Shown: positions 23,989 through 53,753, counted from the first letter of the stretch. The stretch: DNA of 64,000 nucleotides from a virus (IMGVR_UViG_3300008114_000011), one strand, 5' to 3'. The notes: generated from the sequence alone by a model not told the origin. Program-made: numbers and translations.

Positions 23989-24012
23989 TGTATAAACTAA
24001 AAATAAACAACC

Positions 24013-24177
24013 ATGATAACCTTATTCAAAAAACTATTCAATAAAGATTGTAATCACAAGTGGGAACTTGTACAAAACGATAAAAAACTAAATATCAAAG
24101 TCCACCAATGTGACAATTGCAATAAAAGAAAATTAAATGTATCAACATCATTCGGTAATGAAGTAATTGAATTATAA
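24013..24177 (+). CDS. 54-aa zinc-ribbon-like protein (below ORF-track cutoff)
   Basis: ATG 24013 sits ~25 nt after TAnnTTTG box at 23981; CNHKW..HQCDNCNKRK. Confidence 0.3.
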   Translation: MITLFKKLFNKDCNHKWELVQNDKKLNIKVHQCDNCNKRKLNVSTSFGNEVIEL

Positions 24178-24500
24178 TCTTAAAGGTTAGATACAAACCT
24201 AATCAGCGTCCATCTCCATAATCCAATAGGAGGCAAATATATCTAACCTTCAATGAAACTAAGGCATTGAGCCAAGATGCTGTTAGTGTGCGTTATTTAT
24301 TAGTAGAATGGCTTGAGGGCAACCCTATTATCGAATGTTTAGAGTATTGGAGTAATCTACCTAAATACGAAGGTTTTAAAATAGAACACACTATTTGTCG
24401 TATTACTAATGCACACTAACGTATCGGGGCTTTGCGTAGTAGTCCTTAGTAGAAACTTAAAATTAACCACGACACTTGATAGGGCTATTACACAAAGCCC

Positions 24501-24731
24501 TTGTTATGTGCCGTTAAATTTCACAAAATGAGATACGAAGAAAAAATTATCGAACACACAGAAGAAGAAACAGACTTCTTACCACTCAAAGAAGCAATAG
24601 TGAATATCGAATTTTCTCAAGGTGACTTGATTGAAATGAGAGATATTTTAAGACAATTTAAGCCTAATTTATGGGCAAAAGGATTGTTGTCAGATATAGA
24701 AGCCACACTCGAAAAGGTGTCGGTGTATTAA
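24501..24731 (+). CDS. hypothetical small protein
   Basis: ORF between two GC-richer non-coding segments. Confidence 0.35.
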   Translation: MLCAVKFHKMRYEEKIIEHTEEETDFLPLKEAIVNIEFSQGDLIEMRDILRQFKPNLWAKGLLSDIEATLEKVSVY

Positions 24732-24871
24732 TGGCCCGTTTTGCGGTTTTGTGTTAGGCTACGAAGCCTTGGCATTGAGCGGTCGAGCAGCTTGCACAAA
24801 ACCGCTGTTATACGCTGGCACGGGTAATTTAGTAGGAACTTAATTTGAAACACAAATAAAAATCAAAAGCA

Positions 24872-25174
24872 ATGGCAACAGTAATTTATGAAATACCAAA
24901 CTCCGTAAAGGAAATGTTTGAACAAGGCGAAAATAGTTATCGCATTATTGACTATTCAATACAGGAAATGGATAACATCCAAAGTATGCAACATTTCCTT
25001 GACTGTATAGGTGCAACAACGGATAATATCGAAACAGATGATGGAACGCAAGTAGTAGTAATTCATCCCGATTTTGACCACAAACTTGTAATTGATAGTG
25101 GTGGGTTGGGTGATTTTTATTCTCACGGTTATGACGTAACTCTCTATTCGGAAACGGTCAGTAGTGCTTGTTAA
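24872..25174 (+). CDS. hypothetical acidic protein
   Basis: ORF. Confidence 0.4.
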   Translation: MATVIYEIPNSVKEMFEQGENSYRIIDYSIQEMDNIQSMQHFLDCIGATTDNIETDDGTQVVVIHPDFDHKLVIDSGGLGDFYSHGYDVTLYSETVSSAC

Positions 25175-25188
25175 ATATAAAAAACATC

Positions 25189-25398
25189 ATGAAAGATTAC
25201 AAGAAAGGTGATGAATTCACATCTAAAAACTCAGGGACTATTTCAACAATAATAGAGATTGCATCGGAAGATGTCCTAAACTGGTACGGATTAGAAGGTC
25301 CAGCGTTCTGGATAAATGAGAATGGAAGCTCTCAATTAAGACTTTGTACCATAGAAGGCCTCAAAGAACTATTCATTATACCCGAAGAGAAAAAATAG
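25189..25398 (+). CDS. hypothetical small protein
   Basis: ORF (probable start MKDYKKGDEF). Confidence 0.4.
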   Translation: MKDYKKGDEFTSKNSGTISTIIEIASEDVLNWYGLEGPAFWINENGSSQLRLCTIEGLKELFIIPEEKK

Positions 25399-25474
25399 GT
25401 TTCTGACTTCGTGGAAAAATAGTGAACCTTCGTTAACTCAGGTACTAAACTTCGTTTAGAGTTTCTAAAGAAAC

Positions 25475-25500
25475 TACTAAAATCCGTGCGGATTTTAGTA
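25475..25500 (+). repeat. 26-nt element variant (TACTAAAATCCGTGCGGATTTTAGTA, near-perfect palindrome)
   Basis: copy 5. Confidence 0.7.
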
Positions 25501-25584
25501 TCATTAGCTTGTGATATACAGATAAAATCATTATCTTTATACTCACAGAGTGAGAGTATAAAATACTAAAACAAAATAAGAGAT

Positions 25585-26004
25585 ATGAACCTTGACACTA
25601 TAATAAAATCACAAATAATCGGATTAGAAATCGGAATAATAAACGTTATCAAAACAACCGAGTTTAACGTACACGCAATCGCAAACGAATTATCCGATAT
25701 ATTAGGTAAAGAAAATATCCAAATATTCAAAGTTGGTACCCACACAGGTATATCAATACCAGAAATCGTTAAACAATTCGATAACTTCGACTACTCTAAA
25801 CCAATCATAATCGTTACAAACAAAGACGCAATCTATAAACATATCATACCAAGAAACGGTAAAGTAATTCAATCTAAATGCCCAAAAACAGGCTTCCTAA
25901 TCCTAAACGATGTTAAATGGAAATTCACACGTTTCCAATCTACTTTCGAAGGAACAATAACTCAACTAAGAAGAGATTACCAATTAGAAACACTAATAAA
26001 TTAA
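25585..26004 (+). CDS. hypothetical protein with RRDYQLETLIN tail variant
   Basis: ORF. Confidence 0.5.
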   Translation: MNLDTIIKSQIIGLEIGIINVIKTTEFNVHAIANELSDILGKENIQIFKVGTHTGISIPEIVKQFDNFDYSKPIIIVTNKDAIYKHIIPRNGKVIQSKCPKTGFLILNDVKWKFTRFQSTFEGTITQLRRDYQLETLIN

Positions 26005-26019
26005 AAAATAGGTTAGGTG

Positions 26020-26093
26020 GGTAGCTCAACTGGAAAGAGCCTCTCATTAAGAGAGAGATTAAGGTTCGAATCCTGTCCCTTCTGACCTATACT
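26020..26093 (+). tRNA. tRNA-like element, possibly degenerate or partial (GTAGCTCAACTGG D-arm, GGTTCGAATCC T-arm, candidate TAA anticodon)
   Basis: D-arm, anticodon hairpin CTCTC-ATTAAGA-GAGAG and T-arm are recognisable but the acceptor stem pairs poorly. Confidence 0.35.
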
Positions 26094-26108
26094 AAACTTC
26101 AGAGAAGA

Positions 26109-26134
26109 TACTAAAATCCGCACGTTTTTTAGTA
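26109..26134 (+). repeat. 26-nt element, orientation A
   Basis: copy 6, directly after the tRNA-like element. Confidence 0.8.
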
Positions 26135-26348
26135 TCTTCTTTAGTTCTGATTGATCCGAGCCGCCCGAAATCACCGATTAAAATTGTTAAAAACCAGGTA
26201 AAAACCCAGTGGATTTTTTACTGAAAAATGACCCTCTGGAAACGTAAGCAGGTCAAGGCTTTCCGAGAGGTGTGTATATACAAATTGGTGCTGAAAATAA
26301 GGCTACTGGTAGAGAAAATGAAATGGCGATAGAGTTTACACAAAAATA

Positions 26349-26374
26349 TACTAAAAAACGACCGGATTTTAGTA
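26349..26374 (-). repeat. 26-nt element variant (TACTAAAAAACGACCGGATTTTAGTA)
   Basis: copy 7. Confidence 0.65.
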
Positions 26375-26389
26375 TGTTGAAAAATAAGG

Positions 26390-26415
26390 TACTAAAAAGT
26401 GTGCGGAATTTAGTA
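26390..26415 (-). repeat. 26-nt element variant (TACTAAAAAGTGTGCGGAATTTAGTA)
   Basis: copy 8. Confidence 0.6.
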
Positions 26416-26571
26416 TTAACTAAAAGTGAAGTATGACTTTGAAATCGTTCCATTCAAATTAAATCAAAACTAATTCAAATTCTATAAACGTAAAATTGTT
26501 CACATTACACTATAATTTATTTTTATTATTCGTATAGAGTTCTTATATTTATTAAATCAAAACGAAAATAT

Positions 26572-26913
26572 ATGAATGTATTTGATCTAAAAAACAAAAA
26601 GGGATATTTCTTTGACGGATTTACACTTCTTTCTGGTTATATCGGTGGTGGTGAATCAGTATATAGTAGATACTTATCAGGTAAAGTTATTTATGACAAA
26701 CCAGTTTGGTTTTCCAGAACTTGGAGACACGGTTATAAATACGATAATTGGGATTTTAGTAATTTTGAATTCATACCATACGATACATTCAAAAACTTAG
26801 AAACTTATCTTAAATTCATTGAGAAAGCAACCTACAATGAAATTAAAATGTACTTCAAATTGAAAGAGGTAATGAAGTCAGAAGACTTTATAGAATGTGG
26901 GATTAAATTATAA
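26572..26913 (+). CDS. hypothetical protein
   Basis: ORF. Confidence 0.45.
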   Translation: MNVFDLKNKKGYFFDGFTLLSGYIGGGESVYSRYLSGKVIYDKPVWFSRTWRHGYKYDNWDFSNFEFIPYDTFKNLETYLKFIEKATYNEIKMYFKLKEVMKSEDFIECGIKL

Positions 26914-27144
26914 AATAATATGAAACAGATTAATTTATTACTGGATAAGATTTCTAACATTCTTCTGAGTTAGAGGTTATAGTTTATACCAAGGGTATAG
27001 ATTTATTAAATGAGATGTATTAAAATTTTTTTACCTAACGGTAAGAAGTAGTTATTTTTTATTTATATTTGTAGAAATATCTCACTATGAAAGGACACAA
27101 TAGTTATGTGGGAATTAGGTTTATTTAATGGTAATTTATAAGTT

Positions 27145-27609
27145 ATGGAAGGTAGATTATTTAAGGTTGATGATGTTTGGAGGTTAGTCAATTCAAAGAA
27201 TTCAATAATAGCAACGAGTGATTTAGAGTATCAGAGAGCTTTTAGGTGTTATAAACTATCTAATGATAATTGTGAGTTTATATATGATTATGAAAAAATA
27301 TACAATGATTTTAAATTAAATAATCAGTATTGGTTTGCTAAACTTAAAGATGGTAGTATTTTATCTTGTGGATATGGATTAGTTGAAAACGAATTTAATG
27401 GTGATACTTGGTTTGAAATTGGTAAAATAATACCAGATGAGTTGAAAAGTATAGATGGGTATTATACTTTTGATGAGACTCATGATTTAATTAATAATAA
27501 TGGTATAAAAATTGGTAAATTAAGTGATATTGGATATAATAGTCATCCAGATGAAAATAGTTTTGTTCTGATACCTAAATCTGATATTATTGAAACTTAT
27601 TTCAAATAG
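27145..27609 (+). CDS. hypothetical protein
   Basis: ORF; TAnnTTTG box at ~27070. Confidence 0.45.
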   Translation: MEGRLFKVDDVWRLVNSKNSIIATSDLEYQRAFRCYKLSNDNCEFIYDYEKIYNDFKLNNQYWFAKLKDGSILSCGYGLVENEFNGDTWFEIGKIIPDELKSIDGYYTFDETHDLINNNGIKIGKLSDIGYNSHPDENSFVLIPKSDIIETYFK

Positions 27610-28019
27610 CGAAGCTTTCATCAATTTTATTACTTATAACGTCTGATGATAAATTATCGTTTTAATGTTGTTTATCATTTGTTATGTGTAGGTTTTTAGT
27701 TAATTAAAAAAATATAAATATGAAAAAGATAATAGAAGAAATAGATTTTTTGTGGAAAGGTGATAGAAGTATGTTAATTACTATGTGGTTATGTATATTG
27801 TTAGCACTTGTAGTTTTAACTGAACTTGGTTTTAACATATACTTCACTTTTTTTAATTAATGTTAAGAAAACTTACACATAACGGTTGAGAATATAAGCA
27901 GTTATTAACGAAAACTTAAATTGAAACACAGAACTTAATTATTAACAGACAACTTTTATTTGAAAGTAATGAAATAATTGCTTATATTTTTTGTTAGTTT
28001 TAGTATTTAATTTTAATTC

Positions 28020-28274
28020 ATGATTATGAAAAAAACAGATTTGATTTCTTATTTAAAAATATTAGGTGGTTTATCACTTACATTTCCATTATCTCATGCG
28101 TTTTTTGCACTTGACTTTGGGTTAGTAAAAGGTGGATTTATAGCACTTGGTTTATATTTTTTGATGATGTTAATTGCAATACCAATGTTTAACTACCTTG
28201 AATATGGTAAATTTTGGTATTGGGTAAGTGATAAACATAGAGATAGTTTTGATAAAATTAAATATTGGAACTAA
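28020..28274 (+). CDS. small membrane protein
   Basis: two hydrophobic helices. Confidence 0.4.
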   Translation: MIMKKTDLISYLKILGGLSLTFPLSHAFFALDFGLVKGGFIALGLYFLMMLIAIPMFNYLEYGKFWYWVSDKHRDSFDKIKYWN

Positions 28275-28353
28275 CGGTTGGTTGTATATGTAGGTTTTTT
28301 AATTCTAACCTTTAATATATACTATGACTTAATAAAAAACTTGCATATACACC

Positions 28354-28803
28354 TTGTTATATACCGTAAAAATGTGGGATGGTAAAAAATTAAAATTAGA
28401 TATGAAACATAAAATAAAAACAACTCTACGAGAGTTTATTAGGGAAGAACTTGAAAAATTAGATTATTTTTCAACTAATATAGATGGACATCGTTTTGAA
28501 TTGTTGAAAGATGGTGAAGTGGTAGGTTGGACAATGTTTAGTAATGTCATTAAAAATAATAAATTCAATAATCAACCACATATAAGTTTGTGGGATTTAA
28601 TGATAAAAGAACAATATAGAAAGAAAGGATATTCTAAAATATTAATGGAAAAAGTTTTAGAATATTTAAGATACAGTGTAGATATTGTGGATTTACAGGT
28701 TATGGAACATAATAAACCTGCAGTAAATTTATATAAGAGTTTTGGATTTGAAATTTATCATAATACTGGACAAGGTGTTCTTTATATGTCAAAAAAATTT
28801 TAA
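28354..28803 (+). CDS. GNAT-family N-acetyltransferase
   Basis: acetyl-CoA motif A Q-YRKKGYSKILMEKVLEY and motif B NKPAVNLYKSFGF. Confidence 0.6.
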   Translation: MLYTVKMWDGKKLKLDMKHKIKTTLREFIREELEKLDYFSTNIDGHRFELLKDGEVVGWTMFSNVIKNNKFNNQPHISLWDLMIKEQYRKKGYSKILMEKVLEYLRYSVDIVDLQVMEHNKPAVNLYKSFGFEIYHNTGQGVLYMSKKF

Positions 28804-28920
28804 TTTTTTTAAGAAGGGTGTAAAATTTTTATTGTATATAACGGTTGAGAATATGTTTCGTTTCAATGATAAATATTCTTTGTTAGATTGCGTTTCAATG
28901 TGATCTAACGATACTCAGAT

Positions 28921-28948
28921 ATATTTAGGTTTTCTTTTTAATATATAC
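28921..28948 (+). promoter_or_regulatory. local promoter-like repeat ATATTTAGGTTTTCTTTTTAATATATAC
   Basis: near-identical copy at 29227-29258, related copies at ~28295 and ~27690, each ~25-30 nt upstream of an ATG. Confidence 0.45.
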
Positions 28949-28968
28949 TTAAAAATAATAAACGAGTT

Positions 28969-29217
28969 ATGAATAAATTAACACACCTTAAAAGATTTAA
29001 CGAGTCAGAAGAAAACTTGAATATATCTGATGTTAGTGAGAGTAGATGGAATATGATTCCAGATAGATGTGAATATAATGGTAAAATATACAGAATTCTC
29101 AATATAGAACTACAAGGTGGATATTTTACACTACAAGATTTAGAAGCAGAAAGAGGTGACATTCAAGTTTTAGATGATATAGATATGGATAAATGTATTC
29201 CAGTCTATTCTCACTAA
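28969..29217 (+). CDS. small protein with conserved N-terminal leader (..FNESEENLNISDVSES)
   Basis: leader shared with 29276..29644. Confidence 0.5.
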   Translation: MNKLTHLKRFNESEENLNISDVSESRWNMIPDRCEYNGKIYRILNIELQGGYFTLQDLEAERGDIQVLDDIDMDKCIPVYSH

Positions 29218-29226
29218 CGGTCACAG

Positions 29227-29258
29227 ATATATTTAGGTTTTCTTTTTAATATATAAAC
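29227..29258 (+). promoter_or_regulatory. local promoter-like repeat (copy 2)
   Basis: see 28921-28948. Confidence 0.45.
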
Positions 29259-29275
29259 TAAAATAATTTACAAAG

Positions 29276-29644
29276 ATGAAAGGTAAAAATAACATACAAA
29301 GTTTCGAAGAGTTTAAAGAAAACTTGAATATATCTGATGTTAGTGAGAGTAAAACTATTGGAGATATAATAGATGATAACACTAAAGATTCTAATGGATT
29401 TTTTTGGGGTGTATTTTCTGATACTATGAATTTTTTCATTGTTGATAAGGGGTTTAATGTTATATTTGAAACACCTGCGTTTTTTAATGGAAAATGGACA
29501 AATGATGTAAAAGAAGCAATGAAAAAATATGGAATAGACGACAACAAATCAAGAATGAGAACTGATAATAACATAGAAAAATTAAAAAAATCCATTAAAC
29601 TAGAATATGATTTATGGAAAATGTATAGTGATAGAACTAAATAG
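29276..29644 (+). CDS. small protein with conserved N-terminal leader (..FEEFKENLNISDVSES)
   Basis: leader shared with 28969..29217. Confidence 0.5.
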   Translation: MKGKNNIQSFEEFKENLNISDVSESKTIGDIIDDNTKDSNGFFWGVFSDTMNFFIVDKGFNVIFETPAFFNGKWTNDVKEAMKKYGIDDNKSRMRTDNNIEKLKKSIKLEYDLWKMYSDRTK

Positions 29645-29693
29645 TTTTATTCTCACTAATGGTTTGTGTATATGTATAGTTAAATTTTTTAAT

Positions 29694-29873
29694 ATGAAAG
29701 TTAAATGTATAAAAAACAGTATTGATTCAATGACAATACAAATGCCTTGGATAAAGGTAGGAGAAATTTATGAAGTAGTTGGTGAGCATTGGTCAAGGGA
29801 AGATTATTTTGCAGTAAAAGGTGAAGGCGGTTGTATTGCGTTTTATAGGAAGAGTTGGTTTGAAAAAATTTAA
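29694..29873 (+). CDS. MKVKCI-type family member lacking the C-terminal tail
   Basis: N-core MKVKCIKNS..KVGEIYEVV; internal ATG of ORF 29607..29873. Confidence 0.45.
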   Translation: MKVKCIKNSIDSMTIQMPWIKVGEIYEVVGEHWSREDYFAVKGEGGCIAFYRKSWFEKI

Positions 29874-29969
29874 TTATTCATATACGCTGTTAGCAAATCG
29901 TTTTAATGTTTGCTAACTAGATTATATCTCTAAATCAACATTAATAATTAATTTACAAATACTTAACAT

Positions 29970-30770
29970 ATGAAAAAGACAAATTATTACGAAATTTGTA
30001 ATCAAAAATTGAAGTATTTAAACTATTCAGATAGGACTATCAAGTCCTATCTTTATTATATTAATCAATTTTTAGAAAATACTAAAATACCACCAACCAG
30101 ATTAACAGCAACAGATTTCCAACAATATCTCAATAATTACAATTTTACCTCCACCTCACAACAAAATCAAGTCATAAACTCAATAAGATTCCTATACAAA
30201 GAATCACTTAATAAAAAATATGATAAGGTTGATTTTAAAAGACCTAGATCTGAAAAGAAACTACCAAAAGTAATTGATGGCGATTATATCAAATCTAAAC
30301 TTTCTAAAATAGAAAACCTTAAGCATAAAACTATACTTACTTTAACCTATTCAGTTGGTTTAAGAGTTTCCGAAATAATAAATCTTAAAATAGAAGATAT
30401 TGACTCCAAAAGAATGATTATTCATATTAAAAATGCTAAAGGTAAAAAAGATAGAATTGTACCACTTTCAGAAAACGTACAAAATCTAATAAAAATATAT
30501 TCAGAAAAATATACACCAAAAGAATATCTTTTTAATGGTCAATCCACAAACAAATATTCAATACAATCCTGTCAAAATATCTATAAAAAATATATTGATG
30601 AAAATTCATCTATACATACCCTCAGACACTCAGCCTTTACCAACCTCTTAGAAAATGGAACAGATCTAAGAATAATACAGAAAATAGCAGGTCACTCATC
30701 CACCAAAACAACAGAGATATATACACACGTTTCTAATCAACTTTTAAATAAAGTTAATCTACCAATTTAA
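29970..30770 (+). CDS. tyrosine recombinase/integrase (XerC/D-like)
   Basis: C-terminal catalytic block HTLRHSAFTNLLENGTDLRIIQKIAGHSSTKTTEIYTHV (R..H-x-x-R..Y). Confidence 0.85.
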   Translation: MKKTNYYEICNQKLKYLNYSDRTIKSYLYYINQFLENTKIPPTRLTATDFQQYLNNYNFTSTSQQNQVINSIRFLYKESLNKKYDKVDFKRPRSEKKLPKVIDGDYIKSKLSKIENLKHKTILTLTYSVGLRVSEIINLKIEDIDSKRMIIHIKNAKGKKDRIVPLSENVQNLIKIYSEKYTPKEYLFNGQSTNKYSIQSCQNIYKKYIDENSSIHTLRHSAFTNLLENGTDLRIIQKIAGHSSTKTTEIYTHVSNQLLNKVNLPI

Positions 30771-30794
30771 CTTTTCTTTGAAAAGAATTATTAA

Positions 30795-31256
30795 ATGATT
30801 ATATTTGTATATAATCACACACATAATATGATAAAGTTTGTTAAGAAGTCGAGTTCGGGGTCTACAAAAGAGGTGGATTTAATATTATCTGATGTTAGTA
30901 ATTGTAAATCATTAGCATCTTCTATCTTATTAAGAAAATATTTAATGGAGATGGATGTGGATTATATAGAGAAGATGGATTTGATTAATAAACGTATTGA
31001 GTTTAGTAGAAGTTATTTAGAGAGTGTTTTATCTCGTGATGGTGATATTAAGTGTACTTATTGTGGTAAGGGAGATTTGGTTATTGAGTATGATGGGATG
31101 CGTGTCAAAGAAAGTATAAAGGCTACGATTGATCATATCGTTCCTGTATCAAGAGGAGGAGGTAGGTTTGATGTTAGTAATATAACTCCATGTTGTGGTG
31201 AGTGTAATGGTAAGAAGGGTAATAAGTCATTAGATGATTTTCTAAAGTCGATTTAA
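30795..31256 (+). CDS. HNH endonuclease
   Basis: CTYCGK...IDHIVPVSRGGGRFDVSNITPCCGECNGKKGNK. Confidence 0.7.
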   Translation: MIIFVYNHTHNMIKFVKKSSSGSTKEVDLILSDVSNCKSLASSILLRKYLMEMDVDYIEKMDLINKRIEFSRSYLESVLSRDGDIKCTYCGKGDLVIEYDGMRVKESIKATIDHIVPVSRGGGRFDVSNITPCCGECNGKKGNKSLDDFLKSI

Positions 31257-31257
31257 T

Positions 31258-31650
31258 ATGAATAAGATCACATTTTGTTTATCGGATAAGGCTGAATCAT
31301 TTTCATTTGATTTTGATTACTTTACTTTATTGGATGATGGTTCCATAACTTATAGTGGTGTAAATAGACATACTGGTTTTAGCACTAACGAGTTTTATGA
31401 TATTGAGAATATTTTTAAACAAAATGAGAGGTTTGATTTAATTGTATTGAGATGTTTTAGAATTAGAATAAATACTGTAAATAGGGTTATACATGGAGAG
31501 ATTACAAGTTTTGAGAGTTCTGGTCTTAGTAAGGTAAATTTAACTATTAAACCTAAGTTTATTTGGGATCTCGATCTTGGTGATGAGTTTTACAAACATT
31601 TACCAGCAATCAGAAGAGAAATAAAATTAAATAATATTATAGGAATATGA
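31258..31650 (+). CDS. hypothetical protein with RREIKLNNIIGI tail
   Basis: family tail. Confidence 0.55.
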   Translation: MNKITFCLSDKAESFSFDFDYFTLLDDGSITYSGVNRHTGFSTNEFYDIENIFKQNERFDLIVLRCFRIRINTVNRVIHGEITSFESSGLSKVNLTIKPKFIWDLDLGDEFYKHLPAIRREIKLNNIIGI

Positions 31651-31946
31651 CATTAGAAGAATTAAGAGATCGTCCTTTAGAAGAAAAGGTAGATTATATA
31701 TGTGACTACGTTATCTCTCATGGATTGGGACCAAAGTTTAGAAATATTTCTTTCCGTGGAGTAATTGTTGAATATAAGGATATATTTGATGCTATTAGAG
31801 AAGTTAATAGGAGTTTAAGACCAGCTGAATATCATACCGATTGGTATCGATTAGGTGCTAATGTATTTAAAAATGAATTAGTTAAGGGAGTTTTAAATCA
31901 TGAATTGATATTCCCACGTATAAAAGAAGAAATATCAAAGTTATGA
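31647..31946 (+). CDS. hypothetical protein, tandem paralog A
   Basis: MTLEELRDRPLEEKVDYI...VKGVLNHELIFPRIKEEISKL. Confidence 0.55.
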   Translation: MTLEELRDRPLEEKVDYICDYVISHGLGPKFRNISFRGVIVEYKDIFDAIREVNRSLRPAEYHTDWYRLGANVFKNELVKGVLNHELIFPRIKEEISKL

Positions 31947-32242
31947 CATTAGAAGAGTTAAGAGAAAAGTCTTTAGAAGAAAAGGTGAATTATATTTTTG
32001 ATTATGTTACGTCTTATGCTCGTGAAAGAGAAGATAGGTTTAAAGATATACCTTTACGTGTATTAATTGATGAGTATGATGATATAATTGATGTTTTCAG
32101 AGAAGTTAATTATGGTCTAAGAAGATTTTGGAGTCAACCCGGATATCGAGCAAGTATTGAATATAAGAGAGAAGTAGTTAAGGGAGTTTTAAATCATGAA
32201 TTGTTATTCCCACGTATAAAAGAAGAAATATCAAAGTTATGA
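31943..32242 (+). CDS. hypothetical protein, tandem paralog B
   Basis: near-identical N- and C-termini to 31647..31946. Confidence 0.55.
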   Translation: MTLEELREKSLEEKVNYIFDYVTSYAREREDRFKDIPLRVLIDEYDDIIDVFREVNYGLRRFWSQPGYRASIEYKREVVKGVLNHELLFPRIKEEISKL

Positions 32243-46404: not shown

Positions 46405-47193
46405 ATGGGAAAACATTATTTATATAAACATATAAGAAATGATAGTAATATCATTTTCTATATTGGTATAGGGACAAAAAATAAATCTGATATAACTTAT
46501 AATAAGTATAGTAGGGCTTTTAATAAAAAAAGGAGAAATAAACATTGGTTAAATACAGTTTCTTTATTGAATGATGATTATTCAATTGAGATAGTATGTG
46601 AGACCGATGATTATGAATATGTGAAAAGTCTAGAAAAAAATCTGATTTTATTTTATGGTAGAAAGGATCTAGGTTTAGGTAATTTAGTAAATATGACAGA
46701 TGGTGGTGATGGTCAAATAAAAAGAGTTTGGAGTGAAGAGTCTAGGAAGAAGGCATCTAAATCACACATTGGTAAAGTAATTGATGGTGAGTGGAAGAAA
46801 AATTTAATAAAAGCTAGATTTGGAAATAAATCACATTCTGGTCGAACTTTTTCAGATGAACATAGAAAAAAAATATCAGAAGCAGGTAAGGGAAAAATAC
46901 CTTGGAATAAGAATAGAGAATTATCCAATGATGAGATTGAAAAAATAAAAAAGGGTATAGAAGAAAATAAAAAAATTTGTTATATTTGTAATGTTGAGTG
47001 TGACTCTGCTAATTATAATAGATGGCATGGTGATAAATGTGAGATGGGATCTATTTTAGATAGGGTTGATGAGATAAAGGATTTATTGTATAATAAAGTT
47101 CCTTTACTTAGGATTAGTAGAGTTTTAGGAATAAAGTATAAATTATTGAGAAGATTAAAAGAGTCAGTTTTATTTAAAGAAGAATTATTATGA
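46405..47193 (+). CDS. GIY-YIG homing endonuclease with NUMOD3 repeats (I-TevI-like)
   Basis: YLYKHI..IIFYIGIG..R..NKHW GIY-YIG core; repeated SEESRKKASKSHIGK / SDEHRKKISEAGKGK. Confidence 0.8.
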   Translation: MGKHYLYKHIRNDSNIIFYIGIGTKNKSDITYNKYSRAFNKKRRNKHWLNTVSLLNDDYSIEIVCETDDYEYVKSLEKNLILFYGRKDLGLGNLVNMTDGGDGQIKRVWSEESRKKASKSHIGKVIDGEWKKNLIKARFGNKSHSGRTFSDEHRKKISEAGKGKIPWNKNRELSNDEIEKIKKGIEENKKICYICNVECDSANYNRWHGDKCEMGSILDRVDEIKDLLYNKVPLLRISRVLGIKYKLLRRLKESVLFKEELL

Positions 47194-47963
47194 AATATTT
47201 AAAAAAGAAATATCCGGATGGTAGCTTTTATGTTGAAGTAGAGGATTTTAGTGAACCTATAATAACCGAAAGAATAAATTCATATGAGGACCTTTTTTTC
47301 ATAAAATCCATCAAAGAGGTTTGTGATTTTAATGGAATTAAAGATGTTGAGTTATTTATACCATGTATGTTTCAACAGCAACATGACCGTAGATTTTTTG
47401 ATAATCAATCATTTGAACTAAAGATAGTTTGTGACTTTATCAACTCATGTAATTTTAGTAAAGTTTATGTTTTCCATCCACATTCTGATTCCACTCAAAT
47501 GGGATTGAATAATATTAGAGTTGTTGATAATTCTAAATTTATATCAAGTGTTTTAAGTAGAATTGATTCTAATCCAATATTATTTTCAACAGATGCTGGT
47601 TCATTTAAATGGATAAATAAATTAGTTGATAAAATAGGATTTAATGGTGATGTTTATTGTGCTAGTAAGTCTAGAGATTTAAAAACACATGATTTGAAGC
47701 AAGTTATTGATTGTTCTGATTTTGGTGGTAGAGATATATTAGTATTGGATGATTTATGTGTAAAGGGTGGTACATTTATAGGTCTATTGAATATGTTAAA
47801 GGAGAGAAATGTTGGTAAGATATACTTAGCAGTTAGTCATATGACTATTCAAGATCCAAATACAAGTCTTGAGTGTTATGATAAGATATTTACTACTAAT
47901 AGTAAGTATGACTATTATGTTCTAAATAATTTAGAATTGATTGATTATAAAAGTATTATATAA
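47190..47963 (+). CDS. ribose-phosphate pyrophosphokinase (Prs)-like phosphoribosyltransferase-fold enzyme; possibly a phage Adps-type ADPR pyrophosphokinase
   Basis: FHPHSD (cf. Prs MDLHADQ), PRPP-binding loop ILVLDDLCVKGGTF, LAVSHMT. Confidence 0.65.
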   Translation: MKYLKKKYPDGSFYVEVEDFSEPIITERINSYEDLFFIKSIKEVCDFNGIKDVELFIPCMFQQQHDRRFFDNQSFELKIVCDFINSCNFSKVYVFHPHSDSTQMGLNNIRVVDNSKFISSVLSRIDSNPILFSTDAGSFKWINKLVDKIGFNGDVYCASKSRDLKTHDLKQVIDCSDFGGRDILVLDDLCVKGGTFIGLLNMLKERNVGKIYLAVSHMTIQDPNTSLECYDKIFTTNSKYDYYVLNNLELIDYKSII

Positions 47964-47968
47964 AAGAT

Positions 47969-48826
47969 ATGAAAAACTTTAAAATAGGAGGTGTTCCCGA
48001 ACACTTCAACTTACCTTGGCGTTTAGCCATTGAAGAAGGAAGATTAAATGATTTAGATGTAAATCTACACTGGTCTGATATGACTGGTGGTACTGGTCAA
48101 ATGATTAAAGGTTTACAAGCAGGTTCAATTGACATCGCAGTTCTTCTTACTGAAGGAATTACAAAAGCAATTTTAGATGGTTTGGATGCCAAAATATTAA
48201 CAGTTTATGTTAAAAGTCCATTACGATGGGGTATTCACGTACCTTTTAATTCAGAAATGAAAACTTCTGATGATATCAAAGGTAAAACATTTGCTATCTC
48301 AAGAGAAGGTTCTGGTTCACACTTAATGGCTTATGTAAACTCATTTCAAAGAGGTTGGAATACCGATGATTTAAAGTTTGAAGTTGTTGGTGATGTTTAT
48401 GGTGGTTTATGGGCTTTAGAGAATGGGCAGTCTGATGTTTTCTTATGGGAAAAGTTTACAACTTATCCATTTGTTAAAGCAGAGAAATGTAAATGTATCG
48501 GTGAAGTTGTAACACCTTGGCCCTGTTTCGTAGTTGCTGTTAGAAACGAGATCTATGAACAACACAAAGATTTGTTAAGAGAAGTTATGAAAGTCGTTGG
48601 TGGTGTCGCAAATGAGATTAAAAACCCATCATTACATGATTTCTATTCAAATGAAATTTCTTGGAGATATAACTTAGAAAAAGATCAAGCTTCTACTTGG
48701 TTGAATGAAGTAGAATGGAACTACACTGGTGATAATGATGTTAATGATTATGAATTAGTAGTTGATTATCTACAAAAAATATCTCTTATTGAAGAAAATA
48801 AAGACTGGAAATCTAAATTATTTTAG
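47969..48826 (+). CDS. NMT1/THI5-like (periplasmic-binding-fold) protein, tentative
   Basis: FKIGGVPEHFNLPW N-terminus resembles the NMT1/ThiY/THI5 family; weak. Confidence 0.35.
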   Translation: MKNFKIGGVPEHFNLPWRLAIEEGRLNDLDVNLHWSDMTGGTGQMIKGLQAGSIDIAVLLTEGITKAILDGLDAKILTVYVKSPLRWGIHVPFNSEMKTSDDIKGKTFAISREGSGSHLMAYVNSFQRGWNTDDLKFEVVGDVYGGLWALENGQSDVFLWEKFTTYPFVKAEKCKCIGEVVTPWPCFVVAVRNEIYEQHKDLLREVMKVVGGVANEIKNPSLHDFYSNEISWRYNLEKDQASTWLNEVEWNYTGDNDVNDYELVVDYLQKISLIEENKDWKSKLF

Positions 48827-48862
48827 AGGTAATAGGTTCTTATATATATAAGTATAAAAGAA

Positions 48863-49846
48863 GTGATACTTATGTTAGAAGAATTTATAAAAAAATCGAT
48901 AGTTAAATTTGGTAATAAATTTGATTATAGTAAGTTTAATTATGTGAATGCTAAAACTAAATCTATAATCATATGCCCAGTACATAAAGATTTTTTTCAA
49001 ACACCTGATAAGCATTTACGTTCAAAATATGGATGTAAATTATGTTGGGAAATTGAAAAAAAGAAAATAAAAAGAGATTATGTAAAGGGTCCAAATATCA
49101 TTTCAAAAGATGAGTTCTTGGGTAGATGTTATGAGAAGTTTGGTGATAAATTCAAATACGATTTATCAAACTACAATGGGTTTGTTGGTGATTATATAAA
49201 AATAACTTGTTCAGAACATGGTGATTTTTATACAAAACCGAATATACATTTATTAAGTAATAACACCTATGGGTGTAAATTATGTGCTAATGATAATAGA
49301 GTACTCAATAAAACACAAACCTATGATGATGTTATAGAAAAATTATCAAATATTTATAATGATAAATATATTTATCCTGAATATAATAGAGATACTTATA
49401 TTAACAAGAGGTCGAAAATAGATATAATTTGTCCGGATCATGGGCTATTTGTTAAGAGTGTTCAAAAACACCAAAGCGGTCAATATTGTTTTGAGTGTAA
49501 AATTAAGAATATGGTTTTTAATAATATTTTAGTTGGTGGTTACACTGAGAAATTATTTGAAGATAAACCAGAATTAAAGGATAAAAAATCTAAATTATAT
49601 TATTTGAGAATAAATAATGGTGATTATTATAAAATAGGAATAACAACAGTTTCGGTTGAAAGTAGAATAAAGTCATTGAAGAGTAAATCTAAAGGTTTTA
49701 TAAAAGATGTTGAGATTTTATTTGAAAAGGAAATGTCTTTATATGAATCATATATCATGGAGAGTAAAATATTAAATGATAATATAGATAGTAGAGTTTA
49801 TAAAAAATGGAGTACTGAAATTTTCAACAAAAATGTTTTGGAATAA
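48863..49846 (+). CDS. homing-endonuclease-like protein: three zinc-ribbon modules plus C-terminal T5orf172/GIY-YIG-like domain
   Basis: three CP-xHG-x-F..H..GC-xxC repeats; KLYYLRINNGDYYKIGITT..R C-domain. Confidence 0.5.
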   Translation: MILMLEEFIKKSIVKFGNKFDYSKFNYVNAKTKSIIICPVHKDFFQTPDKHLRSKYGCKLCWEIEKKKIKRDYVKGPNIISKDEFLGRCYEKFGDKFKYDLSNYNGFVGDYIKITCSEHGDFYTKPNIHLLSNNTYGCKLCANDNRVLNKTQTYDDVIEKLSNIYNDKYIYPEYNRDTYINKRSKIDIICPDHGLFVKSVQKHQSGQYCFECKIKNMVFNNILVGGYTEKLFEDKPELKDKKSKLYYLRINNGDYYKIGITTVSVESRIKSLKSKSKGFIKDVEILFEKEMSLYESYIMESKILNDNIDSRVYKKWSTEIFNKNVLE

Positions 49847-49881
49847 TAGAATAATTATTATCTTTATAAAAAATAAAAACT

Positions 49882-51462
49882 ATGAACTTTTTAGAAATTT
49901 ATTATACCGATGTGTATAAAACAGGACACAAACCAATGCTACCAGTGGGTAGTGTTTTGATGCAATCAAATTTTACACCAAGGAGTGGTAAATATAGCAA
50001 TTGTCCAAATAATGGTAAAATTGTTTCGTTTGGTCAACAAATGATGGTGAGAAAAATGAAACAAGATTGGGATGTTAACTTTTTTCAAAGACCAATTGAA
50101 GAAATCGATCAATTTGGGAAGGATTTAACAGATATGTTAATGCTGAGTGATCCTTTTGATGTTACTCACTTCAAAGAACTACATAAATTGGGATATCTTC
50201 CGATTGAGTTTAGAGCAATCACTGAAGGTGAGAGAATTCCGTATAAAATACCATTATCGACTATCGTTAATACTAAACCTTTAAATGGTCAAGTTTTTGA
50301 CTGGATAGTTAATTACTTAGAAACTATTAATTCTGCTGAATCTTGGCAAGCACCAACTTCAGCGACGCTATCATTCGCATTAAGAGAGTTATCAACAAAG
50401 TGGATCACAAAAACAGATCCGGAGAGTTTGTGGTTTGTTGACTATCAAAATCATGATTTCTCAATGAGAGGTATGGGTGGTAAATCAGCTATTGTTAATA
50501 GTGGTTTAGGATTTGCTACTTGTTCGAGAGGTTCAGATACACTACCTGTTATACCAGCTGCTAGAATGTATTATGATGAAAAAGATGTTTGTATCAACTC
50601 TGTTATCGCATCTGAACATGCTATTATGTGTTCATTGACTGGATTTTTCATTAAGACTAAAGATGGTTCTTGGGATAAGGTTGGTAACTTTGAAGTTGAG
50701 ACATTTAGGTATTTATTAAGAACTTTTCCAACTGGAATATTGTCATTAGTATCTGATACTTGGGATTTATGGAGAGTTATTACGGAGTACTGTCAAATAT
50801 TAAAAGATGAAATTTTAGCAAGAGATGGCAAACTTGTTATCCGTCCTGACTCTGGTGATCCAGTAGATATTATTTGTGGTAGCATAACTCCAGATATGTC
50901 TTCTTATAATGAAAGATACAAACAACCTCAATATAAAGGTGTTATCGAGTTATTATGGGATATCTTTGGTGGTACTGAAACATCAACCGGATATAAAAAA
51001 TTAGACTCACACATTGGTGCTATCTATGGTGACTCTATTAACTATAAGAGAGCTGAGAGTATTTATGAAAGATTATCAGCTAAAGGATTTGCAACAACAA
51101 ACATCGTTCTCGGTGTGGGATCCTATTCACTTCAGATGGTAACACGCGATACACATGGTATGGCTCAAAAAGCAACCTACATCGAAATTGAAGTTGATGG
51201 TGATGTTGAAGGTATCAACATCTTTAAAGACCCTATCACTGATGATGGTACTAAAAAATCAGCAACTGGATTACTAAAAGTAGTTAAAGTTGATGGTGAG
51301 TTTACATTAATTGATAAATGTACTTGGGATGATGTTAACTCGGAAGATAATGAGCTGAAAGTTATCTTCAAAGATGGTAAGTTCTATAACGAAACGACTT
51401 TGACCATCATACGTGGGAAGTTAGAGGATCTTGTTTCTAAAGAACAACCTGAATTAGTTTAA
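49882..51462 (+). CDS. nadV: nicotinamide phosphoribosyltransferase (NAMPT/NadV) family
   Basis: TDVYKTGH, IRPDSGDPVD and NIFKDPITDDGTKKSATGLL match NAMPT blocks. Confidence 0.85.
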   Translation: MNFLEIYYTDVYKTGHKPMLPVGSVLMQSNFTPRSGKYSNCPNNGKIVSFGQQMMVRKMKQDWDVNFFQRPIEEIDQFGKDLTDMLMLSDPFDVTHFKELHKLGYLPIEFRAITEGERIPYKIPLSTIVNTKPLNGQVFDWIVNYLETINSAESWQAPTSATLSFALRELSTKWITKTDPESLWFVDYQNHDFSMRGMGGKSAIVNSGLGFATCSRGSDTLPVIPAARMYYDEKDVCINSVIASEHAIMCSLTGFFIKTKDGSWDKVGNFEVETFRYLLRTFPTGILSLVSDTWDLWRVITEYCQILKDEILARDGKLVIRPDSGDPVDIICGSITPDMSSYNERYKQPQYKGVIELLWDIFGGTETSTGYKKLDSHIGAIYGDSINYKRAESIYERLSAKGFATTNIVLGVGSYSLQMVTRDTHGMAQKATYIEIEVDGDVEGINIFKDPITDDGTKKSATGLLKVVKVDGEFTLIDKCTWDDVNSEDNELKVIFKDGKFYNETTLTIIRGKLEDLVSKEQPELV

Positions 51463-51512
51463 TTTAAACAAGGCACCAAACTTGTAAACTAATTTCTTTA
51501 TTCACTCGTTAA

Positions 51513-51541
51513 AAAACCCACTCAATTGAGTGGGTTTTTTG
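51513..51541. terminator. bidirectional rho-independent terminator between convergent genes
   Basis: AAAACCCACTCA-AT-TGAGTGGGTTTTTT. Confidence 0.7.
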
Positions 51542-51548
51542 TTTATAG

Positions 51549-51932: not shown

Positions 51933-51947
51933 ATTTATCTTTATATT

Positions 51948-53663: not shown

Positions 53664-53753
53664 AACTTATATATAAAAATGTTTAACTTAAAAAAATTTT
53701 TTCACATTTTATGAAAAGAAACTTTTCGATTTTGATAATAAATATATACTATT

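Follow-up and report, generated by a model that had tools for sequence, protein, structure and literature searches.

Hairpin sites upstream of a Xer/IntI-clade recombinase gene form a probable integron-like cassette array in a large phage

The window analyzed in this study is a 64,000-nucleotide stretch of DNA from a phage (IMGVR_UViG_3300008114_000011) whose host is probably a member of the Bacteroidota. Between 24.4 and 29.9 kb it contains at least nine hairpin sites, which alternate with the bodies of small ORFs. The array leads up to a gene for a tyrosine recombinase (29970-30770; 266 aa, of the Xer/IntI clade and without the IntI-specific insertion), and a gene for an HNH endonuclease lies directly downstream of it (30795-31256). 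All of these sites, bodies and genes are on the + strand. Read on the coding strand, a site has the layout ATT-N5-TAAC, a bulge of 4-6 nt, a stem of 12-25 bp, a loop of 20-170 nt, the return stem, 1-2 nt, and GTTA-N5-AGT.

The most upstream site (24417-24506; 90 nt) has the sequence TAAC-GTATC-GGGGCTTTGCGTAGTAGTCC...GGGCTATTACACAAAGCCC-TT-GTTA, with 17 Watson-Crick and 3 G.T pairs in its stem, and is immediately preceded by a cassette-end pair (24282-24300/24402-24420). It is followed at 24729-24810 by what is probably a degenerate site, in which the core is TAAT (GCGGTTTTGTG...CACAAAACCGC-T-GTTA); this one is assigned with lower confidence. No confident site was found in the window from 24.8 to 27.6 kb; thus the array is either interrupted there or contains a large multi-gene unit. 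It resumes with a short leaderless site of ~47 nt (27637-27684; TAACGTCTGATGATAAA..TGTTTATCATTTGTTA), a type also present at two other loci, L058 (533-580) and L009 (11212-11259). The cassette body that follows (27681-27883), the repeat copy originally placed at 27690, carries a 46-aa hydrophobic ORF (27720-27860), and its ends, GTTATGTGTAGGTTTT and AAAACTTACACATAAC, are complementary with 15 Watson-Crick pairs and 1 G.T pair. Beyond it are a leaderless site of 117 nt (27880-27996; TAAC-GGTTG-AGAATATAAGCAGTTATT...AATAATTGCTTATATTTT-TT-GTTA) and a body (27993-28275) with an 84-aa membrane-like ORF (28020-28274), the ends of which (27993-28015/28253-28275) form 20 Watson-Crick and 3 G.T pairs. 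An 88-nt site without a leader (28272-28359, the copy originally placed at 28295) has a loop containing TTTAATATATAC and a mini-ORF of two codons. It precedes the body (28356-28842) of a GNAT acetyltransferase gene (28372-28803; PF00583, 9e-16), whose ends were read from the sequence as GTTATATAC and GTATATAAC. A short, 47-nt site (28839-28885; TAAC-GGTTG-AGAATAT...ATATTCT-TT-GTTA) is then followed by an "empty cassette" (28882-28909), read from the sequence as GTTAGAT-tgcgtttcaatgtg-ATCTAAC.

The next two sites are of the leader type, with the start codon of the following ORF inside the loop. One (28906-29035, 130 nt, the copy at 28921) has its start codon at 28969 and a 3' arm that is translated as ENLNISDV; it leads into the body (29032-29218) of an 82-aa ORF (28969-29217), in which the 5' end GTTAGTGAGAGTAGATGGAA pairs with the 3' end TCCAGTCTATTCTCACTAAC. 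The other (29215-29342, 128 nt, the copy at 29227) has its start codon at 29276 and leads into the body (29339-29660) of a 122-aa ORF (29276-29644), the ends of which (29340-59/29640-59) form 19 Watson-Crick pairs and 1 G.T pair over 20 positions. The last site (29657-29892, the copy at 29650) has a TAAT core and 26 Watson-Crick and 3 G.T pairs, and its 172-nt loop holds an entire 59-aa ORF (29694-29873). A second "empty cassette" (29889-29917; GTTAGCAAA-tcgttttaatg-TTTGCTAAC, read from the sequence) and a terminal TAAC followed by TAGATTATATCTCTAAATCAAC (29914-29939), a candidate for an attI-like primary site that ends ~30 nt before the recombinase ATG, complete the array.

A first-pass annotation of this DNA had described the region as a conserved block preceding six consecutive genes, ~25-30 nt from each ATG, and had suggested that the block was a distinct promoter class or an element recognized by a phage-encoded factor. 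The exact core of the block, TAGGTTTT, was found on the + strand at 27689, 28291, 28926, and 29234, and had seven matches in total when the whole 64-kb window was scanned. A longer 13-mer, AT[AG]T[TG]TAGGTTTT, was confined to 27.68-29.33 kb, as was its reverse-complement partner AAAACTT[AG][CA]A[CT]AT; CTAACGGT occurred 4 times versus 0.52 expected. The full block was present in only two copies (28916-28959 and 29224-29267), which are 91% identical; the copies at 27684 and 28286 have ~13-20 nt in common, and that at ~29668 is degenerate. The block repeat is real and well beyond chance, although more heterogeneous than first described, and the gene at 28020 has no block ahead of it. For the 28295 copy the proposed spacing was not borne out, as it sits 55-75 nt from the GNAT acetyltransferase start. 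The TAA of TAAC is the stop codon of the previous gene, a by-product of the site architecture (TAACGGT itself is at 27036, 27880, 28272, 28839, and 29215). The NLNISDVSES leader is indeed tied to the block, its coding sequence being the 3' arm.

Each block can pair with a reverse-complementary segment farther downstream (27681-96/27868-83, 28281-303/28331-53, 28915-42/29003-30, 29224-45/29315-36, and 29666-98/29855-87), and the TAAC of each copy is matched by GTTA at the opposite end. What had looked like a promoter is thus one half of an imperfect palindrome, its 5' arm. Where a site type has a start codon in the loop, translation of the 3' arm, ATATCTGATGTTA, yields the NLNISDV leader. At least six stem subtypes were distinguished among the sites, and site lengths clustered at ~47, 85, and 125 nt. 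The stems vary in sequence but keep their pairing, and the AT-rich box TTTTTAATATATAC is limited to one subtype, the loops of the others being unrelated. Because a permissive, generic hairpin scan of the window was swamped by chance pairs in AT-rich DNA, it was replaced by detectors anchored on the site.

Pairing was analyzed quantitatively in 86 distinct sites from many contigs, all 86 of which had both TAAC and GTTA. The 21-pair inner helix was 81.6% paired in these sites, a value inflated for the outer stem columns because the sites were chosen by a detector demanding 11/12 paired positions; columns 37-41, which lie outside that requirement, were still 72-90% paired. Nineteen of the 21 pairs changed on both sides, and the covariation score was 0.499, compared with 0.165 in shuffled alignments (0/500 reached 0.499) and 0.13-0.14 with slid partners. 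One G.T pair was retained in 74 of the 86 sites, and in the mRNA it is invariably a G.U pair. In an independent count over 87 sites there were 1504 Watson-Crick, 155 G.T, and 6 A.C pairs. The bodies show a pairing of their own: the first ~20 nt after GTTA are complementary to the last ~20 nt before the next TAAC. In single small cassettes, 13-20 of 20 positions at the 5' end of the body paired with the 3' end of the same body, compared with 7-13 of 20 for pairing of that 5' end with the flank adjoining it upstream. The sites answer to the description of attC sites as imperfect palindromes with AAC/GTT cores, conserved by structure and 55-140 nt long; their bulge is asymmetric, and no extrahelical bases were identified in them. 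A search of Rfam 15 with positions 24000-30200 (E<=1) returned only a tRNA-Leu and no family matching the hairpins.

Because the sites lie on the sense strand, strong hairpins must also form in the mRNAs, and these may add a regulatory layer. With RNA parameters, the coding strand and its complement folded at -58.6/-36.7, -24.1/-17.6, -38.4/-26.0, -46.2/-38.6, and -49.4/-28.5 kcal/mol. With DNA parameters the coding strand folded only slightly better than the complement, and for the site at 28905-29035 there was no advantage. Folding energy of the DNA was therefore rejected as the reason for a choice of strand. Since the DNA asymmetry is so slight, the conserved G.T fits selection at the RNA level at least as well as it fits a choice of DNA strand.

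The system was seen in 212 IMG/VR contigs. When loci were retrieved by the DNA pattern of the sites, the recombinase was the only conserved neighbor (in 28 loci), and the GNAT gene and six other neighbors recurred in none. In the reciprocal set of 79 loci, retrieved by the recombinase alone, 66 carried one or more sites in the 6 kb upstream; of the remaining 13, 11 were truncated. Site density in these 79 loci was 17.5, 16.0, 11.9, and 10.6 per 10 kb in the first through fourth kb upstream of the recombinase, and 0.1-0.6 downstream, a 30-50-fold excess in favor of the upstream 4 kb. In the nearest kb, 78 sites were on the recombinase strand and 7 on the opposite one; a co-oriented array of sites thus adjoins the recombinase gene, as it adjoins the integrase gene of integrons. 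The suggestion of a phage-encoded factor was, in spirit, close to this result, since the sites are tightly linked to the gene for a phage tyrosine recombinase. Cultured phages gave no match either to a leader-type site (blastn against INPHARED) or to the 10-kb neighborhood (megablast). Full-text literature searches returned only work on canonical integrons and Qi et al. (2023), and not a description of this system. The platform is present in hundreds of large uncultured phages and has apparently not been described so far.

The best NCBIfam match of the recombinase was the XerA model "tyrosine recombinase/integron integrase" (184.9 bits; cut-off 220), followed by the integron integrase model TIGR02249 (158 bits in two stretches; cut-off 265), and the protein fell below the curated cut-offs of all named families. 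The best solved structures were XerA and then VchIntIA. In alignment with VchIntIA, residues 172-206 of the recombinase (35 aa) lie opposite IntI residues 175-257 (83 aa), and the ~48-residue insertion specific to integron integrases is absent. In IntI this insertion, between patches II and III, reads the extrahelical bases of attC. The closest cellular relatives of the recombinase, at 40-49% identity, adjoin classical attC arrays, and AAC/GTT cores are common to those arrays and the phage sites. In the window the array ends in a distinct box, TAAC-TAGATTATATCT, 52 nt upstream of the recombinase. A corresponding box, TAAC-TA(T/G)nATATAT, which does not form a hairpin, was found in almost every one of 65 distinct arrays, 40-60 nt upstream of the recombinase start codon. 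It is a candidate for an attI-like primary site.

Comparison of 86 arrays with one another located the ends of shared segments. Homology began at TAAC in 53 of 81 nearby ends and stopped at TAAC+5. By class, 30 left ends (class A) and 19 right ends (class C) fell at TAAC, and 17 left and 2 right ends (class D) at GTTA; the majority (197 left and 171 right ends) fell at neither. The clearest exchanged unit was a 315-nt site-plus-ORF segment, bounded by TAAC(G) and 100% identical in L180 (5599-5914) and L231 (2130-2445), with unrelated flanks and different types of following site. Similarly, a metallopeptidase-like cassette common to L058 and L009 ended exactly at TAAC|G, with neither flank fully linked. 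Movement of a body together with its downstream hairpin, as in integrons, was rejected, because bodies kept their upstream site and class D comprised only 2 events. No target-site duplications were seen at the junctions. As in integrons, the first bases of a cassette can pair with the inverse core of that cassette, and breakpoints cluster at a conserved core; GTTA was used too, in 17 events. Since GTTA is also a junction, TAAC is a putative crossover point, and either strand may be the one that recombines. The cargo of the arrays is small and diverse (median 84 aa), and five of the ten longest cargo proteins are DNA methyltransferases. The N-terminal motifs LxISDV and FIxTTIREFLNE are shared among cargo proteins.

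These results are best explained, in our view with good probability, if the blocks are the 5' arms of attC-like hairpin recombination sites in an integron-like cassette array of a large phage. Like IntI at attC, the recombinase would bind a site formed by the folding of a single DNA strand; strand exchange would take place at the invariant TAAC and, more rarely, at GTTA. Units consisting of a site and the ORF downstream of it would be excised, captured at the terminal box, and reshuffled. Such recombination is suggested by comparative sequence data.

The arrays share several features with integrons, including chromosomal and "inverted-integrase" integrons. In both, a Xer/IntI-clade tyrosine recombinase gene adjoins a polar array whose ORFs are small, diverse, and co-oriented; these are separated by imperfect palindromes with invariant AAC...GTT cores, in which structure is conserved over sequence; the stop codon is often within the ...TAAC core; a cassette start is complementary to its own far end and homology breaks at the core; and a distinct primary site (here a candidate) adjoins the recombinase gene. 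There are also differences. The phage recombinase has 266 aa and lacks the IntI-specific insertion. Integron cassettes have a promoterless ORF followed by attC and are read from the Pc promoter away from intI, whereas on the coding strand the phage site comes before its ORF, so that the ORFs point toward the recombinase. Many phage sites hold a start codon and ~25 codons. Their central bulge is asymmetric (4-6 versus 1-2 nt), a conserved G.T replaces the known extrahelical bases, end complementarity extends over 15-24 nt rather than 6-7 nt, and the replicon is a large phage genome.

Sites of the attC type with small cassettes have been described in virulent cultured phages, including a flavobacterial (Polaribacter) phage, with DNA methyltransferases among the cargo; these phage CALINs consist of canonical attC sites found by IntegronFinder, mostly in two-site clusters without an integrase, or of pieces of bacterial integrons (Qi et al. 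2023, PMC9892861). The arrays described here share their attC-type sites, small cassettes, and methyltransferase cargo, but have a phage-specific site family with its own conserved recombinase, in 212 IMG/VR contigs. The PeSL cassettes of T4-type phages, in which an early promoter plus a stem-loop reportedly flanks ORFs of hyperplastic regions, are likewise small hypervariable phage ORFs bracketed by a repeated, regulatory-looking stem-loop element and shuffled in modules between related phages. PeSLs reportedly act through homologous recombination and are not known to have a dedicated recombinase; the arrays described here, in contrast, have abrupt junctions at a 4-nt core and are linked to a tyrosine recombinase. 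Xer-type recombinases act on a folded single-stranded DNA hairpin in attP(+) of CTX phage, and in Acinetobacter plasmids Xer sites bound gene modules, the pdif modules. The phage sites have an outer arm, ATT-N5-TAA, similar to the XerD arm of dif; unlike these modules, however, the phage arrays have tens of tandem sites instead of one integration site, no 11-6-11 double-stranded dif-like site, and a phage-encoded recombinase. The translational gating hairpins of T4 gene e, gene 49, and I-TevI and the T7 RNase III sites likewise place long stems in polycistronic phage mRNA, near translation starts or between cistrons; these are single-copy regulatory structures, not known to have recombinase linkage or cassette mobility. 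An analogy with the T4 capsid-targeting leader or with gated late promoters was dropped once the TAAC...GTTA frame had been found in 47- and 85-nt sites that lack a leader and the linkage to the recombinase had emerged.

A different possibility is that the hairpins work mainly in RNA, as RNase III-type processing sites, mRNA stabilizers or insulators, or translational gates, and that the recombinase is just a conserved neighbor; in one form of this proposal, modeled on T4 gene e, gene 49, and I-TevI, read-through transcripts would be blocked and only those started in the loop would be translated. Several observations fit: the sites are in sense orientation within a long run of co-directional genes, the coding-strand RNA folds much more stably than the complement and this asymmetry almost disappears with DNA parameters, the invariant mismatch is G.U on the mRNA strand (74/86 sites; 155 G.T versus 6 A.C), and leader-type sites carry start codons in their loops. 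Left unexplained by the proposal, however, are a linkage to a tyrosine recombinase that is polar and nearly universal, the whole units and homology breakpoints bounded by TAAC, the distinct terminal box at the recombinase gene, and the occurrence of AAC/GTT cores both here and in the attC arrays of the closest cellular relatives; in addition, no Rfam family matched. We consider it improbable as the main explanation; a role in RNA is nevertheless compatible with recombination as a second, added function of the sites.

That each small gene is served by a promoter of a distinct phage class, middle or late, or by some other site for a transcription factor, as first put forward, now seems very unlikely. 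The commonest subtype does have the conserved AT-rich box TTTTTAATATATAC 20-25 nt upstream of the ATG, and 22 sites, a subset of those of ~85 nt, have a perfect host-type TAnnTTTG abutting GTTA at a fixed position. Some loops may contain a promoter. Across the subtypes, however, it is the pairing of the arms and not their sequence that is conserved, the loop box is subtype-specific or missing, and TAnnTTTG is present in only 36 of 364 distinct sites. Moreover, the copies at 27690 and 29668 leave no space for a promoter-to-start spacing, and the motif is confined to the array, with no match ahead of other genes in the window. Very unlikely, too, is a reading in which the elements serve as switches that work by DNA inversion (invertons or a shufflon), or are palindromic mobile elements of the MITE, Correia, or RPE kind, instead of sites of excision and integration. 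Inverted-repeat arms do adjoin a tyrosine recombinase, the "empty cassettes" look like solo terminal repeats, and, compared with the L024-type arrangement, the box and leader that make up the loop at L009 12489-12621 are inverted. This was the only such loop, with the other sites and ORFs co-oriented. The near-uniform orientation of the sites (78 versus 7 in the nearest kb), their restriction to the array beside the recombinase rather than dispersal, the variation of shared units in presence and context and not in orientation, and the lack of visible target-site duplications all argue against such elements.

Within the preferred reading, that of attC-like recombination sites, we lean with moderate confidence toward a broader proposal: that the arrays represent a phage-specific, self-contained, integron-like lineage in which a minimal Xer-like recombinase lacking the IntI domain shuffles site-plus-ORF cassettes at folded hairpins, the sites doubling as translation-start or leader modules. 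The cassettes would form an exchangeable toolbox of small genes for large Bacteroidota phages, including many orphan DNA methyltransferases and shared across hundreds of phage genomes; given its richness in these methyltransferases, the toolbox plausibly serves counter-defense. To our knowledge, integrons have been regarded as bacterial (and recently archaeal) devices, and phages have been known only for stray attC clusters or hitch-hiking fragments. If the proposal is correct, it would supply a mechanism behind the hypervariable regions of small genes in large phages and a route for fast exchange of anti-restriction and host-takeover genes between phages, and it would account for the many phage contigs that end at the array locus. 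It would also mean that cassette recombination at hairpin sites is possible without the IntI-specific domain, which bears on the evolution of integrons from Xer systems. The compact recombinase and its site could be a useful pair for engineering, and the proposal yields a rule for metagenomes: accessory genes of phages are to be sought between TAAC...GTTA hairpins upstream of the gene for this recombinase.

The part of the HNH endonuclease in the system is putative. Its gene is a syntenic partner of the recombinase gene in the Polaribacter Freya phages too, in which insertions of 0-12 genes lie upstream of the integrase. A scan of those phages for TAAC...GTTA sites gave no convincing ones. Their integrase-proximal region is variable.

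The repeat reported between 27.6 and 29.7 kb is a real feature of this DNA. TAGGTTTT was present on the + strand at 27689, 28291, 28926, and 29234 and matched seven times in total in the 64-kb window, within which the longer motif AT[AG]T[TG]TAGGTTTT was restricted to the 27.6–29.7-kb region; CTAACGGT occurred four times, compared with 0.52 expected. The two long copies of the block (28916–28959 and 29224–29267) were 91% identical; of the remaining copies, two were partial and one, near 29668, was degenerate. The first-pass annotation had placed a block before each of several consecutive genes; several copies are real, but the gene at 28020 lacks one. The stop codon of the previous gene, noted inside cTAACGGT, was indeed there, but that TAAC is the 5′ frame of a hairpin structure.

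Each block had a reverse-complementary partner downstream. In the two full copies, the partner arm encodes the NLNISDVSES leader, which is shared by p82 (82 aa, 28969–29217) and p122 (122 aa, 29276–29644); CAGATATATTTAGGTTTTCTTT at 29224–29245, for example, pairs with AAAGAAAACTTGAATATATCTG at 29315–29336. Mismatches between arms were G.U on the coding strand. Every structure was framed by TAAC on the 5′ side and GTTA on the 3′ side, as were leaderless sites of 78–88 nt and ~47 nt, and site lengths clustered at ~47, ~85, and ~125 nt. Diverged copies retained pairing through compensatory changes (TTTAGGTTTTC/GAAAACTTGAA, TGTAGTTTTTT/AAAAAATTACA, TTCAGTTGTTT/AAACAATTGAA, TTTAGTGCCGA/TCGGCATTGAA, and CCTAGTTTGGG/CCCAAATTGGG).

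Covariation was counted over the arms only of 86 distinct sites (alignment A1). In these sites, which were chosen by a detector demanding 11 of 12 paired stem positions, the inner helix of 21 pairs was 81.6% paired, with changes on both sides at 19 pairs; columns outside the detector's 12-position window were still 72–90% paired, with many pair types. The covariation score was 0.499, versus 0.165 in shuffles (none of 500 reached 0.499) and 0.13–0.14 for slid partners. TAAC and GTTA were invariant across the 86 sites. One stem position was G.U in 74 of them, and another pair, in the outer ATT/AGT box, was U.G in 65.

Read in this way, the window shows sites alternating regularly with bodies (the small-ORF segments between sites), a series that ends at a recombinase gene. 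A site of the ~47-nt type (27637–27684) precedes the body with ORF46 (27681–27883), and leaderless sites at 27880–27996 and 28272–28359 precede the bodies with ORF84 (27993–28275) and a GNAT acetyltransferase (28356–28842). A short site (28839–28885) and an empty body (28882–28909) follow; leader-type sites at 28906–29035 and 29215–29342 then precede the bodies of p82 (29032–29218) and p122 (29339–29660). The last site (29657–29892) holds ORF59 in its loop and is followed by a second empty body (29889–29917), a terminal box (29914–29939), and the recombinase gene (29970–30770; Pfam Phage_integrase and SAM_4). An additional site lies at 24417–24506 and a probable one at 24729–24810.

Where the gap between consecutive sites was 330 nt or less, the 20 nt that follow GTTA and the 20 nt that lead into the next TAAC were complementary, with consensus flanks GTTA-N5-AGT at the body start and ATT-N5-TAAC at the body end. 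The ends of a body paired with each other at 13–20 of 20 positions, versus 7–13 of 20 with the adjacent upstream flank. This accounts for the window pairs 27681-96/27868-83, 27993-28015/28253-75, and 29340-59/29640-59; the first of these is the copy noted at 27690, a cassette end and not a site arm.

Other repeats were seen nearby. The segment 27036–27105, 5′ of a 154-aa ORF (27145–27609), looks like a decayed site (CCTAACGGTAAGAAGTAGTTATT...AATAGTTATGTG): it has the TAAC frame and a short stem, two of whose pairs are G.T, but a clean GTTA end is missing. A tRNA-Leu(TAA) at 26015–26084 is followed by three copies (26102–26141, 26342–26378, and 26382–26416) of a 34–37-nt palindromic repeat, ATACTAAAA..CG..TTTTAGTAT; these lie within the part of the array that has no TAAC...GTTA sites.

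Exact scans of IMG/VR found the 27-nt arm-plus-box in 18 contigs and the 22-nt 3′ arm in 55; the two-arm pattern was found in >120 stretches. Across these loci the ~130-nt element was conserved in nucleotides, and the protein bodies after it were all different. In 28 short loci fetched with the hairpin, a recombinase homologue 65–83% identical to that of the window lay just downstream on the same strand. Among the short hairpin-fetched loci there were no homologues of the GNAT protein or six other window neighbors; the HNH protein had only weak matches (28–35%) in three hairpin-fetched loci, and p82 and p122 matched via the shared leader only.

The reverse search, with the recombinase, gave 212 IMG/VR relatives, the best 80 of which were fetched with flanks. 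At least one TAAC...GTTA hairpin was present within 6 kb upstream in 66 of the 79 loci fetched by recombinase alone, and 11 of the 13 site-less loci had <1.5 kb of upstream sequence. Across the 79 loci, upstream sites were densest in the nearest kb (17.5 per 10 kb) and thinned to ~5 per 10 kb at 6 kb, against 0.1–0.6 on the downstream side. Nearly all of the 65 distinct arrays had TA(T/G)nATATAT(C/A) after the final TAAC upstream of the recombinase gene, a position at which cassette sites have G. By its position, 40–60 nt upstream of the recombinase start codon, this terminal box is a candidate equivalent of attI, the primary site of integrons. Numerous contigs in IMG/VR, of lengths up to 349 kb, terminate 0.1–2.5 kb upstream of the recombinase gene (L159, L161, L163, L177, L179, L185, L192, L193, L202, L226, L229, L232, and others), which would fit assemblies breaking within a heterogeneous array rich in repeats, or a genome terminus at that point.

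Among 86 arrays, 53 of the 81 nearby left ends of homology fell at TAAC, and homology stopped at TAAC+5 in 11. Counting only junctions with at least 100 nt of body, left ends fell at TAAC in 30 events (class A) and at GTTA in 17 (class B), and right ends at TAAC in 19 (class C) and at GTTA in two (class D). The majority of HSP ends were at neither, which is expected given divergence and undetected sites. Whole units with TAAC at both ends recurred in differing contexts: a 315-nt unit was 100% identical between two fetched loci (L180 5599–5914 and L231 2130–2445) with unrelated flanks and different following site types, a second was common to L169, L197, and L115 at 83%, and a metallopeptidase-like cassette common to L058 and L009 ended exactly at TAAC|G. 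These junctions and recurring units suggest that the exchangeable unit is mainly a site plus its downstream ORF, joined in TAAC, with GTTA a second and less used junction. At L009 12489–12621, two L-type arms enclose a leader-type loop (box, start, and leader) that is inverted compared with L024 and L057, whose arrangement is otherwise similar; this may be an inversion product.

The best NCBIfam model for the recombinase was XerA "tyrosine recombinase/integron integrase" (184.9 bits, under its cut-off), followed by integron integrase (158 bits, in two stretches), XerD, and XerC; the closest solved structures were XerA and then VchIntIA. Aligned with VchIntIA, the phage recombinase lacked the IntI-specific insertion, 35 of its residues facing 83. 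The closest relatives in 185,579 species genomes were 40–49% identical, apart from one partial 67% match on a 2-kb MAG contig. No sites were found upstream of these 40–49% relatives, and classical attC arrays (such as GCCTAAC...GTTAGCC, 60–130 nt) lay downstream. Such attC-flanked relatives (L241, L245, L258, L264, L273, L295, and L302, on MAG or genome contigs) came from Nitrospirae, Atribacteria, Altarchaeum, Desulfitobacterium, Ignavibacteriota, and Bacteroidota; their genes are just ~10–20 codons longer than that of the phage, and these relatives could be integron integrases in which the IntI insertion is short or missing. Given the family matches and the relatives beside attC arrays, the phage system appears to be one branch of the integrons. 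Reverse-complemented, the phage locus has the canonical layout, with the integrase pointing away, the primary site at its 5′ end, and the predicted crossover at G|TTA, the far end of each hairpin. The single departure is that every cassette ORF sits on the opposite strand, running in the same direction as the recombinase and the surrounding phage genes.

The cultured Polaribacter phages Freya_1 (MT732463) and Freya_10 (MT732472) (L318–L321) carry a 40%-identical integrase and then an HNH endonuclease, a gene pair also present at 29970–31256 of the window. In Freya_10, an additional 12 small ORFs (4.9 kb, the genome-size difference) are inserted exactly between the Freya1_66 homologue and the integrase, and the Freya_1 to Freya_10 isolates form a graded genome-length series. 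No clear TAAC...GTTA sites were found in this region of Freya_1 and Freya_10; the inverted repeats seen there were of other kinds, for example GTTGGTTACAG.../...TGTTACCAAC.

The best explanation is probably an integron-like array of gene cassettes that has a Xer-like recombinase of its own, recombination being deduced from sequence comparison. The first-pass annotation had suggested, as one of two possibilities, a distinct promoter class. TAnnTTTG does occupy one fixed position in 22 sites of the ~85-nt subtype, and promoters may be embedded in some loops; however, TAnnTTTG occurred in only 36 of 364 sites and the AT-rich box was confined to one subtype, so a promoter class does not unify the sites. 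The hairpins might instead act only as RNA: with RNA parameters the coding strand was far more stable than its complement in five of five cases, whereas with DNA parameters the two strands were nearly equal. We rank this well below recombination, because it leaves the recombinase linkage, cassette structure, mobility, terminal box, and recombinase relatives unexplained. Given the same folding contrast, the conserved G.T/G.U pair could reflect strand discrimination by the recombinase, selection for mRNA structure, or both, and a dual role of the sites in recombination and as RNA is plausible. We found no description of this phage cassette system in the searchable literature; the nearest published case (PMC9892861) concerns a few cultured phages that carry clusters of canonical attC sites.

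The arrays yielded 343 non-redundant cargo ORFs (median 84 aa). The 10 longest included five DNA methyltransferases (one C5, three N6/N4, and one Dam-like) and an RNA ligase; the window's own cargo comprises the GNAT acetyltransferase and small membrane-like peptides. Two N-terminal motifs that are not site-encoded recurred in otherwise unrelated cargo ORFs: FI(K/A)TTIRE(F/Y)LNE in 12 of 343 and MSKEMR...K(N/W)(F/W)KQF(V/L)NE in 13 of 343; the N terminus of the window GNAT (28372–28470) reads ...KIKTTLREFIREELE. Considered alongside the K(R)FNE..ENLNISDV leader, which the site does encode, these motifs suggest an N-terminal tag common to unrelated proteins, possibly with a targeting or packaging role.

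The window has a G+C content of 28.5%. Its 571-aa ORF was most similar to proteins of 630–735-kb uncultured megaphages and Cellulophaga phages, which makes a Bacteroidota host likely. Phage-type genes include nicotinamide phosphoribosyltransferase (49882–51462) and homing endonucleases; in 46405–54587, three homing-endonuclease-like genes (46405–47193, 48863–49846, and a GIY-YIG gene at 53754–54587) are interleaved with the former and ribose-phosphate pyrophosphokinase (47190–47963). Tandem 99-aa paralogues at 31647–31946 and 31943–32242 have overlapping stop and start codons and near-identical N and C termini (MTLEELR...VKGVLNHEL(I/L)FPRIKEEISKL).
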